From a virus (lineage: Monodnaviria > Loebvirae > Hofneiviricota > Faserviricetes > Tubulavirales > Inoviridae): a stretch of DNA of 10,306 nt. Of this stretch, positions 1 to 10,306 are shown piece after piece. The DNA lies in IMG/VR virus record IMGVR_UViG_2541047900_000001. One strand, written 5' to 3'. Below the pieces are notes generated by a model that was not told the origin of the DNA, searched no databases, and saw only the letters and a program-made list of their open reading frames with translations. The translations under genes were made by a program, and so were the position numbers. How positions within the stretch are numbered: the first letter of the stretch is position 1; each line of letters begins with the position of its first letter.

Positions 1-14
1 ACATTATGCGCACC
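1..14 (-). other. Partial dif site (XerC arm plus first 3 bases of the central region), truncated by the window edge
   Basis: Bases 1-14 ACATTATGCGCACC are the exact reverse complement of GGTGCGCATAATGT, i.e. the XerC arm GGTGCGCATAA plus TGT of the central region of the E. coli-type 28-bp dif site. The rest of the site would lie left of the window. Confidence 0.75.
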
Positions 15-154
15 AATGGTAAGGATGGCAGAATCTGGCGGGAATCGTTGACACTGGCCGTCAACTGGCTACTATCGACAGTGATTCAAAATCATCCGTT
101 TCTCCAAACGAATCAGAATCAAATGTCTGTCAGCAGTAAGTGAACGGCCTGACC

Positions 155-403
155 TCACCAATCAGGCCTGTTCATCCAGTTAGTTGGTAAATCTGTACCT
201 GATACACGAGAATCAAACACCACTTCTTCAGTGCCATCACCATGATGCCGGATAATCTGGTAACCGGATTGCGGGTTCTGGCTCTCAGCTTCATAAGCAG
301 CCCGGAATGCTGGATCTTTGAGAAGCATCACTTTCAGCTCCTGATGTGTCATGAATTTTTCCATGATAAGCCCCGATGAATGCTGCCGCGCCGAATCAGC
401 CAT
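155..403 (-). CDS. Hypothetical small protein (82 aa) in the cargo position downstream of the secretin; start codon uncertain
   Basis: Intact ORF. No convincing Shine-Dalgarno at the annotated start, and internal Met codons (MEKFM..., MTHQELK...) are alternative starts. No family assigned. Confidence 0.4.
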   Translation of the reverse strand: MADSARQHSSGLIMEKFMTHQELKVMLLKDPAFRAAYEAESQNPQSGYQIIRHHGDGTEEVVFDSRVSGTDLPTNWMNRPDW

Positions 404-548
404 AACGCTGAAAATGGAAACTGTACGGCTTGGCCAACCCCGGACAGCAACAAAACAAGTTTTGTCACTGACCGGCGTTATCTTTCAAAACAGACAGTTA
501 ACGATTTTTTGTCTGGTGTTTATGCGTGAAATTTCGTGCGTACGAAAT

Positions 549-797
549 TCACCACCAATAAACAAACGGACGATGACTGACCGGAAAAGCAATGCCGTCA
601 GCATCATGACCACGCATTACCTGATTGAGAAGCCTTCTGACTTCACGACGCTCAGGCCTGGTCATCATCATATTGCGATACCAGGACGGCGATTTATCAA
701 ACCATCTGGCACAACTGGCAAAATGTGAACCTACACGACGATAAGACTTAAGGCGTCCACCGGGAAGTCGGTCACGCGCCTTATTTTTTACAGACAT
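549..797 (-). CDS. Hypothetical small basic protein (82 aa), cargo gene immediately downstream of the secretin
   Basis: ORF preceded on the minus strand by AGAGGA, 6 nt, ATG (strong Shine-Dalgarno). Arg/Lys-rich translation. No family recognised. Confidence 0.5.
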   Translation of the reverse strand: MSVKNKARDRLPGGRLKSYRRVGSHFASCARWFDKSPSWYRNMMMTRPERREVRRLLNQVMRGHDADGIAFPVSHRPFVYWW

Positions 798-885
798 AAT
801 AAATCCTCTAAGTAACTGAATACCTAGAAGATGTCGTACTGTTCATACCCCATAAAAGTTAACGCCATAATAAAAATCCATACAA

Positions 886-2130
886 TCAGTTCAGGTTGTC
901 CCGGAACAGTTCACCGCTCCTCGCGGCGCTGCGGGGCGTCGCCCTGCTCCGGTCAACCTTTCTGACCTGAAGCATCACCATAATATCAGTCTTGTTGCTT
1001 TCACTGGTACGGGAACCGAAGAAGCTCCAGCCGGAACTGGCCTTACTGTCTTTCTGTTCAGCAAGGCCACCAAGTAAAATAATATCACCATCTGCAAGGC
1101 TGACTTCGGTTGTTACATCACGCTTGATAAGGGTTGGCGAGTTATTGACGCCGGTTTCAGTGGTCACAAAGTTGGAAAGCTGCTGCTGAATCTTGAGATC
1201 CATTGTCCGACTTTTGATTGATGGCGTCACGTTAAACAAAACACCGCTGGAACGATATTCAACGGATTGCGTTGTCGTATTGTTATTCACCGTAACACTG
1301 CCCAGTACTGGCACATCAGAGCCGACTGAAAAAGACGCTGAGGCATTATTTTTTACCCGCAGTCGTGGCGCACTGACAACAGTAAAACGACTGTCGGTTT
1401 TCAGCAGATTGAAAATGGCATCAATGGAGCCGGTTCGAATATTGATAAAATTATCCAGTCCGGCAGCACCAACTGAAATATTGAATTTATCAGACAGAAT
1501 TTTAGCCGCTAAAAGAATGCCGGAGCCGTCAGACTGCGAGGTCTGAACCTCAAAAACATAACCAGAAACAACCACTTCATCACTCATCGTATCCAGCGAA
1601 GTGACCAGTGTTTTCAGGATGGCGATATCCTCTTTCGTACCATAATAAACCAGAATATCACCGGTTCGATTGATGTAGTTGCTTGCCCCTGATGAACCTT
1701 TTAGCGAATCGTCAGAAATCACGGCTCCACTGTTATTGAAGGAGCCTGAAACGTAGCCGCCAAGAATATCAGACAGGTAAGCAACAGAACGGTACTGAGG
1801 CGTATAAGTCCATGTATAACGTGGCTTAACCGGCTCTTTCGGCGTATAGGGCGCGATAAAATCAACACCCTTTTTCGTCCATATTCGAATGTTCATATTG
1901 CCAAGATAACGGGTTACAAATTCCCGTTCATCAATATCAGGTGTTAACCTGAATGTAATCATTCGTTCATCATTAACAAGCTGTGGATCTAGCATATACG
2001 GGACTTTAAGCACCTCACTGTAAATAAGAGAAATAGCCTCCGGTAGCTTGACTTTATTTAATTCAAGCTCTGACCCTGCGAAAGCACATGAAGAAAATAG
2101 TAGCGTTAATGCGAGTAAAATCTTTTTCAT
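886..2130 (-). CDS. Filamentous-phage pIV-type outer-membrane secretin
   Basis: 414 aa with N-terminal signal peptide MKKILLALTLLFSSCAFA. C-terminal half has the secretin-like pattern (VVSAPRL..., SVG..VP..., ILLGGL) resembling Ff gene IV protein. Its ATG overlaps the upstream gene's TAA by 1 nt (2130). Confidence 0.88.
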   Translation of the reverse strand: MKKILLALTLLFSSCAFAGSELELNKVKLPEAISLIYSEVLKVPYMLDPQLVNDERMITFRLTPDIDEREFVTRYLGNMNIRIWTKKGVDFIAPYTPKEPVKPRYTWTYTPQYRSVAYLSDILGGYVSGSFNNSGAVISDDSLKGSSGASNYINRTGDILVYYGTKEDIAILKTLVTSLDTMSDEVVVSGYVFEVQTSQSDGSGILLAAKILSDKFNISVGAAGLDNFINIRTGSIDAIFNLLKTDSRFTVVSAPRLRVKNNASASFSVGSDVPVLGSVTVNNNTTTQSVEYRSSGVLFNVTPSIKSRTMDLKIQQQLSNFVTTETGVNNSPTLIKRDVTTEVSLADGDIILLGGLAEQKDSKASSGWSFFGSRTSESNKTDIMVMLQVRKVDRSRATPRSAARSGELFRDNLN

Positions 2131-5757: not shown

Positions 5758-6075
5758 TCAGCCTTTTATTTCAGTAATGCCGCCATCTGATGAAATGTTA
5801 TAAGTTACTCCTTCCCTCCCCTCCATTGACCAGACGCGAACATATACAGGTATCTGGACTAACTTACCGATAAAATTATTTGCCTGATTCATTACACCGG
5901 CATTAACAAGAGCCTGAGATACACGAATAATAATCTGGTCTTGCTTAGTGCCGCCAAAACCATCAGGAATCTCTAAGCCAACACCAATTTCATTATAGTA
6001 TCCCTGACCATTGACCTTATTACGCTGGCGAGCACCAAGCATTTTACCTTTTACAAAAAGACCATAATTAGACAT
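5758..6075 (-). CDS. Probable ssDNA-binding protein (gene V analogue)
   Basis: 105 aa; AAGGAG Shine-Dalgarno; immediately downstream of the replication gene, where gene V lies in inoviruses. Assigned mainly by synteny and size. Confidence 0.55.
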   Translation of the reverse strand: MSNYGLFVKGKMLGARQRNKVNGQGYYNEIGVGLEIPDGFGGTKQDQIIIRVSQALVNAGVMNQANNFIGKLVQIPVYVRVWSMEGREGVTYNISSDGGITEIKG

Positions 6076-6086
6076 ATCACTCTCCT

Positions 6087-7139
6087 TTAATGCCAGTTAC
6101 TGGCATGTGAAATACGGTTATAATCGAAAATTAAACCTTTCTCATAAACCCATGATGGAATTTTGGCTGGTTTGGCTTCAAGAGTACGAACCAACGGAAC
6201 AACGTTATTAGAATCCGGTGACTCACAATAAAAGTTAATATCTATTCCGAAAGAAAGTAATTCTTTACGGTGTCGGTAGAATGTAGGTTTCGGTAACATC
6301 TCTTTCATGTTCGCGCCCTGCTTCCACAATAAATATGTAGACTGTATTTTTCTTGGGAGATTAATTATTTTTTCATCAGTTAATATAGTATTTTGATTCA
6401 TTTCTATTCTCCCTACATAGTCAGAGAATAATTTATTGGGCGTCTCAATATTCCAGCTATTACCAAGCGTAAGATTCAAATCAATTAATTCAGTTGTTCT
6501 TAATGTTAATTCAATGCGTAATTTATCTTTTGACCAGTCCAGTAAACCAGCTTTAACGAATTCGTCTGCCATCTGGTGCCCTTTTTTGCCAGATGTATGC
6601 TCATCATATTTTGAATAAAATTTCAGGCTCCAACGACGGGAGTTTTTCCCTAAGTAAACAGTGCCACCTTTACCACAGGCGCGACCGTGGCGAGTTTTAG
6701 CTTTAAATTCTGCGGCATATAACCATGCGCGGACATTTTCTAATGTTGACAATGAATACATGTAATTGATATCGATGCGCGAGATCTTAAATTGCCCTTC
6801 CATGACCTGCCGATAGGATGGTAGATCATGAGGAATATGCAGTAATGCCAATATTCTGGCGTAAGCTGTTAACACCAACCCTTGCAAATCGTCGGAACCG
6901 ATAACAGAGTGACCTTGCAAAAACTTTGATGGATTACCGTCAATGTAGAGATGTGTTGCCCGACCTTCACCATCAGATCCAACAGACCTTACTTTCATTG
7001 TGGACTCATGCGAACCGCGAACGGTCAACCGTTTTACTGTTTCCCACTCCACTGCACCGTCAGCATCGACGCTGACGACACTACCAGCCGGTAACGGTCG
7101 GTGTGTGCAAGGCAGGATTCCGGTAAACCAGTCGATCAT
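6087..7139 (-). CDS. Rolling-circle replication initiation protein (gene II / RstA-like)
   Basis: 350 aa; first gene of the minus-strand module, divergent from the HTH repressor as rstA is from rstR in CTX-phi. Size and position typical of inovirus replication initiators. Confidence 0.8.
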   Translation of the reverse strand: MIDWFTGILPCTHRPLPAGSVVSVDADGAVEWETVKRLTVRGSHESTMKVRSVGSDGEGRATHLYIDGNPSKFLQGHSVIGSDDLQGLVLTAYARILALLHIPHDLPSYRQVMEGQFKISRIDINYMYSLSTLENVRAWLYAAEFKAKTRHGRACGKGGTVYLGKNSRRWSLKFYSKYDEHTSGKKGHQMADEFVKAGLLDWSKDKLRIELTLRTTELIDLNLTLGNSWNIETPNKLFSDYVGRIEMNQNTILTDEKIINLPRKIQSTYLLWKQGANMKEMLPKPTFYRHRKELLSFGIDINFYCESPDSNNVVPLVRTLEAKPAKIPSWVYEKGLIFDYNRISHASNWH

Positions 7140-7277
7140 AAGTAGTCACACCCATCAAAATATGTGTCAATAGTCATTTGTGAGCAGATTGAATGGTCAC
7201 AATGTAATATGCTCAGATCTGACAGTCAATACATTTGCAATGTTTAAATTGTCAAAAATGAGCATCAAATCTAACTA
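7140..7277. promoter_or_regulatory. Divergent control region between replication gene and repressor (copy 1); probable promoters, operators and possibly the origin
   Basis: 138-bp AT-rich spacer between divergent genes. Contains a perfect 10-bp palindrome TCAGATCTGA (7213..7222), an inverted repeat TGTGA...TCACA (7180..7200) and three TGTCAA-like motifs (7165-7171, 7224-7230, 7250-7256). Exact -35/-10 elements could not be assigned. Confidence 0.55.
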
Positions 7278-7712
7278 TTGATGAAGTTATGGCGGACAAA
7301 CAGAGAGCAGAACGGTATCAAAAAGGTAATTCTGGAACACTCGACTTATGAAGAACTGGCCGAGAAGACTGGCATTAGCGTGAGTACGCTGGTCAGGATA
7401 GCGTCCGGCAAAACTGAACCTAAATTCAGTGACATCATTCAGATAGCTAAAATTACGGGTGCAGACTTAAACACCTTAGCTTATGGCTATGCTCTTGATG
7501 TTAAAGAAGAAGCTACCGAGCGGAAGCTAATCACTTCTGCGGATGGATATACTGATGAAGAAACCACTAACGCACATAATTTCATCGTGTGGAACATCAG
7601 GACACTGGAAAAACAAGATATTCTGGCACTCGCAAGGCAGGTTTCTGCCTTAAGTTCATACACTTACAGTACTAAAATGTTTATGAAAAAAGCGGTGTCT
7701 GGAGAAGAGTAA
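7278..7712 (+). CDS. HTH (XRE/Cro-C1-type) repressor, copy 1 with altered 5' end; possibly non-functional
   Basis: 144 aa, identical to copy 2 from IKKVILEH onward. Lacks the 46-bp segment carrying copy 2's Shine-Dalgarno and start, begins at TTG/ATG without a recognisable ribosome-binding site, and an extra G changes the first ~12 residues. Confidence 0.45.
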   Translation: MMKLWRTNREQNGIKKVILEHSTYEELAEKTGISVSTLVRIASGKTEPKFSDIIQIAKITGADLNTLAYGYALDVKEEATERKLITSADGYTDEETTNAHNFIVWNIRTLEKQDILALARQVSALSSYTYSTKMFMKKAVSGEE

Positions 7713-7726
7713 AAGGATTAACAGTC

Positions 7727-7879
7727 TCAGGAATGAGACAAACGTGCAGTATTACCGCGAACGGTCAACCGTTTTACTGTTTCCCACTCCACTGCACCGT
7801 CAGCATCGACGCTGACGACACTACCAGCCGGTAACGGTCGGTGTGTGCAAGGCAGGATTCCGGTAAACCAGTCGATCAT
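7727..7879 (-). pseudogene. Truncated duplicate of the replication gene 5' end (42 native codons plus 8 out-of-frame codons)
   Basis: 7754..7879 matches 7014..7139 (rep codons 1-42); reading continues into the reverse complement of the repressor copy 1 3' region and stops after 8 codons. Confidence 0.8.
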
Positions 7880-8050
7880 AAGTAGTCACACCCATCAAAA
7901 TATGTGTCAATAGTCATTTGTGAGCAGATTGAATGGTCACAATGTAATATGCTCAGATCTGACAGTCAATACATTTGCAATGTTTAAATTGTCAAAAATG
8001 AGCATCAAATCTAACTATTGAAAAACCACTGTTAAGATGGAGCCAAGTAG
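7880..8050. promoter_or_regulatory. Divergent control region, copy 2, with extra 46-bp segment providing the repressor ribosome-binding site and start
   Basis: Same motifs as copy 1 (palindrome TCAGATCTGA at 7953..7962), plus 8021..8066 containing GGAG about 9 nt upstream of the ATG at 8051. Confidence 0.55.
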
Positions 8051-8497
8051 ATGGGCAACAATGAGCATGAAGTTATGGCGGACAAACAGAGAGCAGAACG
8101 TATCAAAAAGGTAATTCTGGAACACTCGACTTATGAAGAACTGGCCGAGAAGACTGGCATTAGCGTGAGTACGCTGGTCAGGATAGCGTCCGGCAAAACT
8201 GAACCTAAATTCAGTGACATCATTCAGATAGCTAAAATTACGGGTGCAGACTTAAACACCTTAGCTTATGGCTATGCTCTTGATGTTAAAGAAGAAGCTA
8301 CCGAGCGGAAGCTAATCACTTCTGCGGATGGATATACTGATGAAGAAACCACTAACGCACATAATTTCATCGTGTGGAACATCAGGACACTGGAAAAACA
8401 AGATATTCTGGCACTCGCAAGGCAGGTTTCTGCCTTAAGTTCATACACTTACAGTACTAAAATGTTTATGAAAAAAGCGGTGTCTGGAGAAGAGTAA
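8051..8497 (+). CDS. HTH (XRE/Cro-C1-type) transcriptional repressor, intact copy
   Basis: 148 aa; helix-turn-helix segment STYEELAEKTGISVSTLVRIASGKTEPKFSDIIQIAKITGADL matches the XRE pattern; GGAG Shine-Dalgarno; divergent from the replication gene as rstR is in CTX-phi. Confidence 0.85.
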   Translation: MGNNEHEVMADKQRAERIKKVILEHSTYEELAEKTGISVSTLVRIASGKTEPKFSDIIQIAKITGADLNTLAYGYALDVKEEATERKLITSADGYTDEETTNAHNFIVWNIRTLEKQDILALARQVSALSSYTYSTKMFMKKAVSGEE

Positions 8498-8525
8498 AAG
8501 GATTAACAGTCTCAGGAATGAGACA

Positions 8526-8554
8526 AACGTGCAGTATTACCAACACTGCACGTT
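8526..8554 (+). terminator. Putative rho-independent terminator of the repressor gene
   Basis: Perfect 10-bp inverted repeat AACGTGCAGT (8526-8535) / ACTGCACGTT (8545-8554), 9-nt loop, then CTTTATTGTG. Only the left half is present after copy 1 (7741-7750). Confidence 0.6.
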
Positions 8555-8593: not shown

Positions 8594-9016
8594 ATGATGA
8601 GTAGAAATAACGAAACAAGCGGCGTTGAATTGGTTGTCGTGGGCGTATTTGCTTTCTGTCTGGCAGTTGTTGCCTGGTTAATGAAAACTTTCGATGTTGA
8701 ATGGCAAACAGCACTGGAAACTGCGCCTGGCCTGATAGTCTGGTTGCTTGTTGTCGGTGCGGGGATCTTTTTCGGGATCAAAATGGAAACAGGTCTTGTT
8801 CGCTGGGGTGCCCCACTGGCGATCGCCCTTCTGATTCCGGTATTCAAACCAATTCTTAAGGAAGCTGCCGGAGTACGTGAAATGGGTGGGTTGGTTTTCG
8901 ATGATATGGTTTCGTGGTACGGAACTGGCTGGGGAATGTCTCTGATGTTTTTTGGAATTCTTATCGTCGGATACGGTCTGCTTTATTGGTGGCACCGAAG
9001 AAATTCATATTATTGA
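8594..9016 (+). CDS. Small integral membrane protein (about 4 predicted transmembrane helices), function unknown
   Basis: 140 aa; AGGA Shine-Dalgarno 5 nt upstream of the ATG; four hydrophobic segments (VVVGVFAFCLAVVAWLM, LIVWLLVVGAGIFFGI, APLAIALLIPVF, MSLMFFGILIVGYGLLYWW). Antisense ORFs 8557..8847 and 8678..8995 judged to be shadows. Confidence 0.7.
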   Translation: MMSRNNETSGVELVVVGVFAFCLAVVAWLMKTFDVEWQTALETAPGLIVWLLVVGAGIFFGIKMETGLVRWGAPLAIALLIPVFKPILKEAAGVREMGGLVFDDMVSWYGTGWGMSLMFFGILIVGYGLLYWWHRRNSYY

Positions 9017-9018
9017 TA

Positions 9019-9049
9019 TAATATTACCCTAGGTTAACTAGGGTAATAT
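9019..9049. promoter_or_regulatory. Near-perfect 31-bp palindrome (13-bp arms, 5-nt spacer): terminator or protein-binding site
   Basis: AATATTACCCTAG (9019-9031), GTTAA, CTAGGGTAATATT (9037-9049); lies 3 nt after the stop of the membrane-protein gene, at the transition into AT-rich DNA. Confidence 0.55.
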
Positions 9050-9117
9050 TCAAATACTAAATTTTTACATTTTATCTGACCATCTTTGATCAGTTAAAAC
9101 ACTGGATTTTAAGTAAA

Positions 9118-10221
9118 ATGAGAAAAAAGATGCCGGACTTGATTACTGATACATTGAAAGTAGTTACTTCTTTTTTTGTGGCATTAGTCCTCAATAAGTT
9201 TTTATCTATATTTAGGAAAAGACAACTTTACTTATCCTGTTGGAACTCCTTGAGTAAAACCTCAATATCTGACAATGCAATAGTAATAAATGCATCAGTA
9301 TTTAATAAAGGTAAGGATAAAGAAAAAAATGTAGAAATAAAAGTCCCAAACGGTATGTCTTGTACTGTAATTGCAAGTGATCATGATGCAACTACCGAAG
9401 GTTCTTTTGTGAAGATAGATAGAATATTAGCAAATAAAAAAATATCCATGGTGCTCTTGATTGAAGGAACAAGAGTTCTTGATAAAAGTACCATGCCTTC
9501 CATAAGATCAGAAGATACTGACGGGAAAACATACCTTTCAAAAGACTCAGTGCCACCGAGTGCAGGTTCTTTTATTTTAGGCGGTGCTATTTTTGCTGCA
9601 TTTTTCAGTTATATGGTCATCAGTATCCAAACAGAAGACAACCCTCTCGCGGGCCCATTGAAAGCATATAACTACATGATTTATAACAATATGTACAATT
9701 CTGGACTTTCGATTAATCCTATAGGTAATGGACTGATAACTGAAAATTACAATCTAAGAGCGAATGAATACCCTATTGAAATAATAGATGCCAAGATAGA
9801 AAAAAATCAAATAATGTTCAAATTTAGAATAATTAATAAAACATCAGAAGCACTGAAAGTTTCAGGCGGATGGAGAATATATAAAAACTTTCAATATATT
9901 TCCGAACATGTTGATACATTTGATTATAAAGATGAAAAGAAAAGAGAAGAAGAAGAAATAAGGGTGTATAAGAAATACAATGTGGAATTTGTTAATGATA
10001 ATGGATATCTTATGGAAAAACCGAAAGAAAGGGTTGAAGTTCCTGCAAATTCAGTTGGCTATATTATAATAAACAGAAAATACTCTCCAAGCATTACTTA
10101 TAATGACCTAAACATCGAGTTTAACTTTAGTGGTGGTTCAGGTGAAATATACCAAGAAGCAGATATGCTTTTTACAGCTAAGAATTCTAATATAAGCAGT
10201 ACTATATTAGACAAGAAATAA
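9118..10221 (+). CDS. AT-rich hypothetical membrane protein with two predicted transmembrane helices and large Lys/Asn/Ile/Tyr-rich domains; function unknown
   Basis: 367 aa uninterrupted ORF in visibly AT-rich DNA, unlike the rest of the window. Hydrophobic helices near the N-terminus (VVTSFFVALVLNKFLSIF) and mid-protein (FILGGAIFAAFFSYMVISI). Weak Shine-Dalgarno; a second in-frame ATG 4 codons downstream is an alternative start. Confidence 0.7.
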   Translation: MRKKMPDLITDTLKVVTSFFVALVLNKFLSIFRKRQLYLSCWNSLSKTSISDNAIVINASVFNKGKDKEKNVEIKVPNGMSCTVIASDHDATTEGSFVKIDRILANKKISMVLLIEGTRVLDKSTMPSIRSEDTDGKTYLSKDSVPPSAGSFILGGAIFAAFFSYMVISIQTEDNPLAGPLKAYNYMIYNNMYNSGLSINPIGNGLITENYNLRANEYPIEIIDAKIEKNQIMFKFRIINKTSEALKVSGGWRIYKNFQYISEHVDTFDYKDEKKREEEEIRVYKKYNVEFVNDNGYLMEKPKERVEVPANSVGYIIINRKYSPSITYNDLNIEFNFSGGSGEIYQEADMLFTAKNSNISSTILDKK

Positions 10222-10227
10222 TTAATT

Positions 10228-10254
10228 GGTTCGCACAATGACGTTATGCTAAAG
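10228..10254 (+). other. Degenerate dif-like sequence (candidate Xer recombination site) with a 5-bp central region
   Basis: GGTTCGCACAA TGACG TTATGCTAAAG versus dif GGTGCGCATAA TGTATA TTATGTTAAAT: 9/11 matches in each arm, central region one base short. Orientation is inverted relative to the dif fragment at 1-14. Confidence 0.4.
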
Positions 10255-10290
10255 AGGCCGCTGCGGAGGCCATTTTCGCAGCGGCCTTTT
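10255..10290 (+). terminator. Putative rho-independent terminator downstream of the AT-rich gene
   Basis: GC-rich inverted repeat AGGCCGCTGCG (10255-10265) / CGCAGCGGCCT (10277-10287) followed by TTT; flanked by a further inverted pair CGTTATG / CATAACG. Confidence 0.55.
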
Positions 10291-10306
10291 CAACATAACG
10301 AGTCGC

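Follow-up and report, generated by a model that had tools for sequence, protein, structure and literature searches.

What do the two small open reading frames (ORFs) at the dif-side end of CUS-1/Ypf-phi-type inoviruses encode, and do they form a pair? We addressed this question in a 10,306-bp stretch of viral DNA (IMG/VR record IMGVR_UViG_2541047900_000001; hereafter “the window”), which is a CUS-1/Ypf-phi-type inovirus prophage that ends at a dif-like attP, and in which positions 155-885 lie between the secretin gene and that site. The ORFs and their ctxAB-like position are already known, having been in the literature since 2002-2014: YPO2280a and YPO2281 of Ypf-phi and their CUS-1 homologues (Gonzalez 2002; Derbise 2007; Derbise & Carniel 2014) are the same genes in the same dif-side position. 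YPO2280a and YPO2281 were described as ORFs of “no predictable function” located where CTX-phi carries ctxAB, and both of them lie in a 7.1-kb segment over which Ypf-phi and CUS-1 are 99% identical (PMC4266046). Both phages modestly raise fitness in animals, and a 2014 review raised the functions of the terminal ORFs as a question about a phage that adds to the fitness of Yersinia pestis and extraintestinal pathogenic Escherichia coli (ExPEC) (PMC4266046). An earlier note on the window drew the same analogy with ctxAB, correctly, although it had already been published. The literature treats YPO2280a and YPO2281 as a pair of terminal unknowns, and reports no corrected start for the second ORF, no leader or hairpin, no wider family and no division into a backbone gene and a cassette.

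Here we propose that window positions 155-885 constitute the dif-proximal end of an inovirus genome in which two unrelated, independently inherited small genes, accompanied by structured RNA and single-stranded DNA (ssDNA) elements, do not form a two-gene operon, an explanation that we hold, taken as a whole, with moderate confidence. We refer to the gene nearer the secretin gene as ORF-B and the gene nearer dif as ORF-A.

Two separate genes lie between the secretin gene and dif

Both ORFs are located on the minus strand, in different frames, after the secretin gene (886..2130) and before a dif half-site, as the earlier note had it. ORF-B (549..797), which corresponds by gene order to YPO2280a, encodes an 82-aa protein whose pI of 11.5 and Shine-Dalgarno sequence (AGAGGA, 7 nt upstream of the ATG) bear out its description as a small basic protein with a Shine-Dalgarno sequence. 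ORF-A, YPO2281-type by gene order, had been read as a second 82-aa ORF (155..403) separated from ORF-B by 145 bp. We rejected this version because the internal ATG at 364 is the start common to all 33 ORF-A homologues, and relatives either carry the 5' extension in another frame or have no ATG in it; the gene therefore spans 155..364 and encodes an acidic protein of 69 aa (pI 5.15), and the gap between the two genes is 184 bp. (PGAP calls ORF-A at 155-352.) A plus-strand ORF (351..728) whose overlap had seemed to make the gene structure uncertain is spurious, as it contains stops in relatives and has no PGAP annotation.

The existence of homologue families, comprising 34 sequences for ORF-B, nearly all of them exactly 82 aa in length, and 33 for ORF-A, together with ratios of non-synonymous to synonymous divergence (dN/dS) of 0.08-0.26 for ORF-B (with synonymous divergence, dS, saturated) and 0.1-0.5 for ORF-A, indicates that both are more than chance ORFs. 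Nor are they the halves of one disrupted gene, since each has its own full-length homologues and these also occur separately. ORF-B is present without ORF-A in Morganella, P. parvum, Pantoea and Zobellella, ORF-A is present without ORF-B in three loci (L043-L045), and in a CUS-1 variant of E. coli 90-9280 (L081) ORF-A has been replaced while ORF-B remains; the two genes are therefore not a functional pair. The interpretation from which we started was thus half right: the stretch after the last morphogenesis gene is a cargo slot and ORF-A lies in it, but ORF-B, the most conserved backbone protein, is not cargo.

ORF-B is conserved where the rest of the phage diverges

In inoviruses of Xenorhabdus, Morganella and Pectobacterium, which differ in their Rep (Phage_GPA, Rep_trans, pII/X) and coat proteins, an 82-aa ORF-B homologue is always found ~90-200 bp past the secretin gene. 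These homologues are 67-77% identical to ORF-B of the window, compared with 24-47% for the secretin; Zot is ~43% identical or undetectable, and pVI is ~50% identical. A scan of one genome per species yielded 17 further ORF-B loci, from Y. pestis, Pantoea, Brenneria, ten Xenorhabdus and Zobellella (59% identity). The Y. pestis locus matches window 1-900 at 99.3% nucleotide identity, with ORF-B 100% and ORF-A 97% identical, and its dif lies 536 bp past ORF-B. Because the identity of ORF-B stays high where secretin, Zot and Rep diverge, ORF-B is a fixed backbone gene rather than cargo, and its product is the best conserved protein across mosaic Enterobacterales inoviruses (59-79% identity overall, versus 24-49% for the secretin). 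Dif lies as little as 31 bp (Zobellella) or 125 bp (Pantoea) and as much as 2.4 kb past the ORF-B stop codon, indicating that a variable accessory block is inserted between ORF-B and dif.

Orphan copies were also observed in Pantoea, where an intact leader (described below), ORF-B and a spacer hairpin (hairpin 2) lie beside a chromosomal dif with no phage genes nearby (L062 4001-4402; L077/L078 9001-9249). Ordinary chromosomal genes are located upstream, and the same protein is encoded on 23 contigs.

ORF-B had no match in Pfam, NCBIfam, PADLOC, PHROGs, PDB (sequence profile) or BFVD (Foldseek with a structural model), and 18 of its homologues gave no Pfam hit at E <= 10. The AlphaFold2 (AF2) model contains a weak three-helix core. 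The composition of the protein (22% K+R, 13% aromatic residues, no hydrophobic segment and a grand average of hydropathy [GRAVY] of about -0.8) points to a cytoplasmic product. A sigma-70 promoter scan identified no minus-strand promoter for either ORF-B or ORF-A.

A leader ORF ends within a hairpin that contains the ORF-B Shine-Dalgarno sequence

Every inovirus locus shows conservation of the 60-70 nt that precede ORF-B. In the window, a 14-codon leader ORF (MALTFMGYEQYDIF-TAG; 868..824, minus strand) begins 17 nt past the secretin stop codon and ends 26 nt upstream of the ORF-B ATG. An ATG-initiated leader of 11-14 codons is present in 15/15 distinct loci examined, in each case ending ...G-Y-E-Q-[LY]-D-I-F-stop. 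Among the 15 distinct sequences, variability per pair is 3.8 at third codon positions and 1.0-1.2 at positions 1 and 2, and codon differences comprise 289 synonymous and 141 non-synonymous changes. Given this excess of third-position variability and of synonymous over non-synonymous changes, the leader appears to be under selection as a peptide.

The leader stop codon falls in the 5' arm of a 12-bp RNA hairpin (832..803, minus strand), the 3' arm of which contains the ORF-B Shine-Dalgarno sequence AGAGGA. Across 18 loci, 95.8% of alignment cells are paired in this hairpin, versus 40-57% with slid partners; two pairs show compensatory changes, and the hairpin is also the centroid fold. None of these elements (the leader, this hairpin and two spacer hairpins at 552..526 and 480..435) was listed in the earlier note. 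What we see upstream of ORF-B is a conserved short upstream ORF whose stop codon is located within a stem predicted to hide a downstream ribosome-binding site, and we infer that leader and hairpin together could serve as a translational-coupling device for ORF-B. The conservation of the leader peptide suggests, in addition, a possible nascent-chain effect.

In the mechanism that we propose, ribosomes leaving the secretin gene would encounter the leader 17 nt downstream and would reach its stop codon in the 5' arm of the stem whose 3' arm masks the ORF-B Shine-Dalgarno sequence. If the stem were opened only by a ribosome reading the leader, ORF-B would be translated solely at that time, and stalling by the nascent peptide would be possible. 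Such coupling would keep the ORF-B product scarce and would link it to expression of the late operon. The arrangement resembles MS2 and hok/mok coupling and the secM-secA, tnaC and erm leaders, in which a short upstream ORF likewise ends in the 5' arm of a stem that occludes a ribosome-binding site. As in arrest-peptide operons, the window leader is conserved at the amino acid level, but its 11-14 codons are too short to exit the ribosomal tunnel, and to our knowledge it has no sequence similarity to known arrest peptides. A further difference from known leader-controlled systems is that the gene regulated here would encode a phage protein without an assigned function.

ORF-B has relatives in tailed phages

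A search of 1.84 billion representative proteins with an ORF-B profile returned 149 hits at E <= 1e-3, ranging from 50 to 146 aa. The family shares a C-terminal motif of approximately [ST]PxWWxN..MTRPxRR...L...G.D.D...FPL..KPHxYYW-end (in short form, TRPxRR...KPHxYYW), and an N-terminus of the form MS[IV]KN.xKDR..NGR is common to a large subgroup. The remote members have no relative in Pfam, PHROG or PDB, and no member has a name given by its source. Those in IMG/VR are located on contigs of 15-250 kb that contain no inovirus genes. Profile similarity thus places ORF-B in a family of small basic proteins that has no annotation and is found in inoviruses as well as in tailed phages.

In a lambdoid prophage (L008 6001-6279), the family gene lies between the genes for tail-assembly protein I and tail fibre J and adjoins a gene for a Doc-like toxin. 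On at least eight other tailed-phage contigs, it is located 50-80 bp upstream of a gene for an 840-1,600-aa tail-fibre- or minor-tail-like protein; these tail-fibre-linked loci are L014, L015, L016, L019, L026, L028, L035 and L042, with the gene at about 6000-6200 in each.

Remote members from tailed phages contain a mini-ORF of 2-3 codons (AUG ACA UAG) inside a 5' arm, GACAUAGG, that pairs with CCUAUGUC, the start codon of the family gene itself. TAGGT is found at positions -40..-15 in 11/23 remote loci, versus a background of 0.8%. Distant family members appear, therefore, to have the logic of leader/hairpin coupling in another form.

Spacer hairpins and a possible packaging role for ORF-B

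The spacer between ORF-B and ORF-A is structured (fold z = -3.05) and contains two hairpins. Hairpin 1 (526..552, minus strand) overlaps the ORF-B stop codon and is a terminator-like stem without a T-run that is present in the centroid structure; a related stem, followed by CTTTTC, opens the cassette that the window has in common with L043 and L044. Hairpin 2 (435..480, minus strand) is a 19-bp stem-loop with a consensus fold of -22 kcal/mol over nine copies, two pairs of which show compensatory changes. Its G.T/G.U pairs are found on the minus strand only, which is the mRNA sense and, from the known polarity of filamentous phages, also the packaged strand. It is retained after ORF-B in loci without ORF-A (L006, L062) and in the E. 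coli 90-9280 variant. A search of window 1-1000 against Rfam gave no match.

A hairpin 2 homologue (AACGCCGG..GTGACAAAA..TTTTGTT..CCGGGGTTGG) was also observed in ~25 plasmids, 18 of them conjugative (L080 4001-4050; L084 2501-2550; L082/L083 2501-2555). In the IncF copies examined (L080, L084), it occupies the spacer between traT and traD, oriented antisense to tra, and folds better in that orientation than in the tra sense (-15.9 vs -9.3 kcal/mol); given the textbook polarity of F transfer, this antisense strand is the one that is transferred. In Klebsiella and Pantoea plasmids, the homologue lies upstream of small genes. Hairpin 2, a long stem-loop with strand-specific G.T pairs on the packaged strand, might be a single-strand initiation (ssi) site or minus-strand origin of the kind known from filamentous phages and from conjugative plasmids. 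This reading is attractive, but hairpin 2 has no sequence match to an annotated ssi and some plasmid copies simply precede small genes.

Alternatively, hairpin 2 could be a packaging signal and ORF-B a factor that binds it and delivers phage ssDNA to the export machine, by analogy with PSB15, a basic DUF3653 protein of Xanthomonas phage phiLf whose ligand is a packaging signal. Proteins of the PSB15 type are very basic (pI above 10) and are required in trans for virion assembly. ORF-B is a backbone gene that directly follows the assembly and secretion genes, its pI of 11.5 is above 11 like that of PSB15, and a conserved, strand-specific hairpin follows it in many phages; moreover, we know of no packaging signal in integrative enterobacterial inoviruses. 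Several observations argue against this reading. The DUF3653 domain, which is N-terminal in PSB15 and which PSB15 shares with the Xer activation factor XafT, and the WAGFXF motif are absent from both ORF-A and ORF-B: neither protein had a Pfam hit at E <= 1, and the ORF-B sequence and its alignment lack the LTG/WAGFXF/TPE DNA-binding motifs of PSB15. In Xenorhabdus, Morganella and Zobellella phages, no hairpin 2 was detected downstream of ORF-B, and L043 and L044 contain hairpin 2 without ORF-B. Unlike PSB15 and XafT, the ORF-B family reaches tailed phages, whose genomes are double-stranded and which have no ssDNA packaging. Finally, ORF-B is conserved while Zot, coat and secretin proteins diverge, which argues against co-evolution with the assembly proteins. 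We therefore consider a PSB15-like role for ORF-B unlikely.

ORF-A is part of a swappable cassette

Profile searches, which had returned nothing for ORF-B, identified ORF-A as a member of phrog_6642 (E = 1e-53), a family of unknown function; the match covers residues 14-82 of the 82-aa version only. ORF-A had no match in Pfam, NCBIfam or PADLOC, and phrog_6642 was its sole match in PHROGs. The AF2 model of ORF-A, composed of two helices and a beta-hairpin (mean predicted local distance difference test [pLDDT] score of 70), had no fold match in PDB (Foldseek), and a sequence-profile search of PDB returned nothing significant.

ORF-A is always located 38-157 bp from a functional dif. It is carried, with both of its flanks, on a cassette of ~490 bp (window 1-490) that is ~80% identical at the nucleotide level to the dif-proximal end of IKe/UP-phi-like inoviruses that do not contain ORF-B (L043, L045). 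The most conserved segment of the cassette is not the gene but its 126-nt non-coding leader (365..490, minus strand), which shows 83-89% nucleotide identity versus 67-81% for the ORF-A coding sequence and is found in 177 E. coli genomes. The 3' non-coding flank between ORF-A and attP (15..154, minus strand) is 74-76% identical in L043 (IKe-like) and L044 and 89% identical in L081, is mostly absent in L046, and has no significant fold (z = -1.2).

The E. coli 90-9280 variant of CUS-1 is 97.5% identical to the window from position 411 upward and 89% identical in window 1-176. Between these breakpoints (~176 and 411), the ORF-A segment alone has been swapped for an unrelated 81-aa gene on the other strand (L081 3680-4000). 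We considered and rejected the possibility that L081 is an integrase-type variant, as its integrases lie beyond dif and the swap is confined to the ORF-A segment. Because the cassette is common to unrelated inoviruses and is replaced in L081, ORF-A appears to be a swappable accessory gene and the true cargo gene of this moron slot.

In relatives, variable genes fill the slot from ORF-B to dif, which measures between 31 bp and 2.4 kb, and some Xenorhabdus phages have after ORF-B a gene with weak similarity to ORF-A (36-47% identity). In Pectobacterium and Xenorhabdus relatives (L006 10504-11785; L003 10984-11952), the slot is occupied by an antitoxin-like gene of the Xre/MbcA/ParS type, together with a gene for a 312-aa partner, and by a TacA-like gene; these look like genuine toxin-antitoxin (TA)-type cargo. 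The slot resembles those in which ctxAB (CTX-phi) and the phage hypervariable regions of Vibrio (pHVRs, between zot and xafT) are located, in that a variable block separates the last morphogenesis gene from dif; it differs from them in holding, in the window, the ORF-A cassette only and no recognised defence or toxin gene. The cassette was also observed (~80% nucleotide identity) on a ~1.46-kb element that extends from an attP-left-like sequence to dif (L044 4923-6383, a contig of Logan ERR14846700). This element contains two small opposite-strand ORFs and no replication or morphogenesis genes; it represents a remnant left by deletion or else a miniature element that depends on Xer.

The earlier note had suggested that the two ORFs might be a TA pair or regulatory moron, in which case basic ORF-B would be the toxin and acidic ORF-A the antidote. 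The opposite charges of the two proteins (pI 11.5 and 5.15) suit this proposal, as does the tight restraint predicted for ORF-B translation, which is typical of many toxins. ORF-B is followed by ORF-A or a weak ORF-A-like gene in CUS-1/Ypf-phi, Brenneria, P. odoriferum and several Xenorhabdus phages, and the slot in relatives does contain TA-like genes. However, no toxin, antitoxin or defence model in Pfam, NCBIfam, PADLOC or PHROGs matched either protein, and the genes are neither overlapping nor coupled, being separated by the 184-bp spacer with its two hairpins. The separate occurrence of the genes is also difficult to reconcile with a toxin and its antidote: Morganella, P. parvum and Zobellella, as well as Pantoea (an orphan copy), have an intact ORF-B but no ORF-A, ORF-A exists without ORF-B in L043-L045, and L081 has replaced ORF-A and retained ORF-B. 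A TA pair is, in our judgement, very unlikely.

The prophage, its free circular form and its attachment site

Among 5,426 complete E. coli genomes, 121 contain window 1-1000, in most cases with >=99% identity. The INPHARED phage collection yielded no DNA match. A 9,565-bp circle, NZ_CP128883.1 (L002), has the same set of genes and is the free form of the phage, of which the window is a circular permutation opened at attP (junction at L002 338/339). The record is labelled as an untypable plasmid of E. coli TUM14759, and it is actually a phage replicative-form genome. Relative to this circle, the window alone contains an additional 741-bp internal tandem duplication. The duplication is partial and spans window 7014-8541 (7014-7281 = 7754-8021; 7281-7756 = 8067-8541), yielding a second, N-terminally altered copy of a helix-turn-helix (HTH) repressor gene (7278-7712; the intact copy is at 8051-8497) as well as a stub of 50 aa from the N-terminus of rep (7727-7879).

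The genes on the minus strand are arranged in the order rep, ssDNA-binding protein, small coat-region genes, pIII, pVI, Zot/pI, secretin, ORF-B, ORF-A and attP. The secretin (pIV) gene (886..2130, minus strand), the last of the morphogenesis genes, is annotated as a GspD-type secretin in UTI89 and L002, and its relatives match Pfam Secretin. On the opposite strand, a region of ~30% GC (window 8594-10221) contains a 140-aa membrane-like ORF (8594-9016) and a 367-aa ORF (9118-10221), neither of which had a match in Pfam or PADLOC. The variable end that distinguishes CUS-1 (orf1/orf1a) from Ypf-phi (YPO2271/2272) is at the opposite end of the genome from ORF-A and ORF-B (PMC4266046), and the CUS-1-specific orf1/orf1a correspond to these two low-GC ORFs, not to ORF-A and ORF-B.

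The earlier assignment of the window to the Xer/dif-integrating inoviruses is confirmed by its ends. Window 1-14 (minus strand), the prophage end and crossover boundary, is identical to the right half of the reverse-complemented E. coli dif and comprises the XerC-arm half plus 3 nt of the central region; in UTI89, a complete 28-bp dif is located exactly at the window-1 junction (L001 2987-3014). The other half of attP (10228..10306, plus strand) is composed of an inverted dif-like site (10228-10254), a GC hairpin (10255-10287) and an XerD-like arm plus bubble (10288-10306), and in the free circle window 1-14 runs on directly from 10288-10306. AttP is therefore built from a pair of inverted dif-like sites, one at 10228-10254 and the other formed by 10288-10306 together with 1-14, that flank a GC-rich hairpin, and on the packaged strand it is predicted to fold into a forked hairpin with an unpaired central bubble (-31 kcal/mol). 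This is an attP of the CTX-phi type, in which an inverted dif-like pair forms a forked hairpin in (+) ssDNA and dif is regenerated on one side. Such an attP had already been proposed for Ypf-phi, and the fold of the window agrees with the published model.

The proximity of the two genes to this site raises the possibility that one of them is an analogue of XafT and would activate or direct XerCD there. XafT, a DUF3653 Xer activation factor, is encoded by the terminal, dif-adjacent gene of Vibrio CTX-I inoviruses, and like XafT (TLC-phi, Vibrio CTX-I) and PSB15, ORF-A and ORF-B are small proteins encoded near a dif-like site at the end of a morphogenesis module. ORF-A is never farther than 157 bp from dif, ORF-B lies 31-125 bp from it in minimal arrangements, and both genes persist beside dif in the absence of a phage. 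The attachment site itself argues otherwise, since a CTX-type forked ssDNA hairpin integrates via XerC alone and needs no XerD activator, whereas XafT systems use a TLC-type attP (degenerate XerD arm, duplex, XerD-first) that the window does not match. In addition, neither protein contains DUF3653, the ORF-B family is found in tailed phages outside any dif context, and ORF-A is dispensable in L081, which is nonetheless integrated at dif. We consider an Xer cofactor among the two ORFs very unlikely.

Discussion

The idea that the ORFs encode secreted virulence cargo comparable to ctxAB is scarcely credible, for although they occupy the same position as ctxAB and CUS-1 and Ypf-phi increase animal fitness, neither sequence contains an N-terminal hydrophobic signal or transmembrane segment on inspection, both proteins are hydrophilic (GRAVY about -0.8) and resemble no toxin family, ORF-B is found in insect, plant and environmental bacteria that share no common niche (Xenorhabdus, Brenneria, Pantoea, Zobellella), and the CUS-1 virulence mutation was mapped to puvA, which encodes a virion protein (PMC4266046).

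What might ORF-B do? Its composition and conservation are consistent with a dosage-limited cytoplasmic effector whose target would be a conserved nucleic acid of the host or a protein associated with nucleic acid, a role that we regard as a serious possibility, although somewhat short of an even one. That the target is instead phage DNA or RNA, with ORF-B serving as a regulator or in packaging, is possible but distinctly less probable. A more ambitious version, in which the ORF-B family is widely mobile, is gated by a nascent-peptide-sensing leader (GYEQLDIF-stop) and a start-site hairpin, and acts on a deeply conserved host target, would bring these features together; we consider it doubtful.

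Several points weigh against the explanation that we favour. Conservation of the leader codons D-I-F-stop is partly confounded with that of the hairpin arm in which they lie, and covariation in the hairpins is modest (two compensatory pairs each) owing to the close relationship of the sequences. That the leader, ORF-B and ORF-A are translated is deduced from comparative signatures, and it is composition and the logic of conservation that speak for binding of ORF-B to nucleic acid or a host factor; the ORF-B model is poor (pLDDT 53), and the protein has no fold or sequence relative of known function. ORF-B is followed by ORF-A, or by an ORF-A-like gene, in about half of the inovirus loci, such that some interplay between them is possible. 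Lastly, the intact orphan copies beside dif could be passive remnants of deletion rather than a sign of benefit to the host.

What is added here to the published description is modestly new: a putative leader/hairpin switch, an unannotated ORF-B family across inoviruses and tailed phages, and a mobile ORF-A/hairpin cassette. The wider family, with 149 or more remote members of which none is annotated, is a genuine if small addition, and so is the conserved leader peptide. For the biology of these phages, our data suggest that the two ORFs are better studied separately, with ORF-B the likelier of the two to matter for phage biology or for a conserved interaction with the host. The putative leader-ORF/hairpin switch upstream of ORF-B is defined and open to mutation, and ORF-A with its hairpin cassette is the mobile part. 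If the reading in which the leader senses the nascent peptide were true, the terminal ORF of these plague and ExPEC phages would be a regulated, host-manipulating effector, and its leader would represent a new class of ribosome-arrest or termination-sensing peptide.

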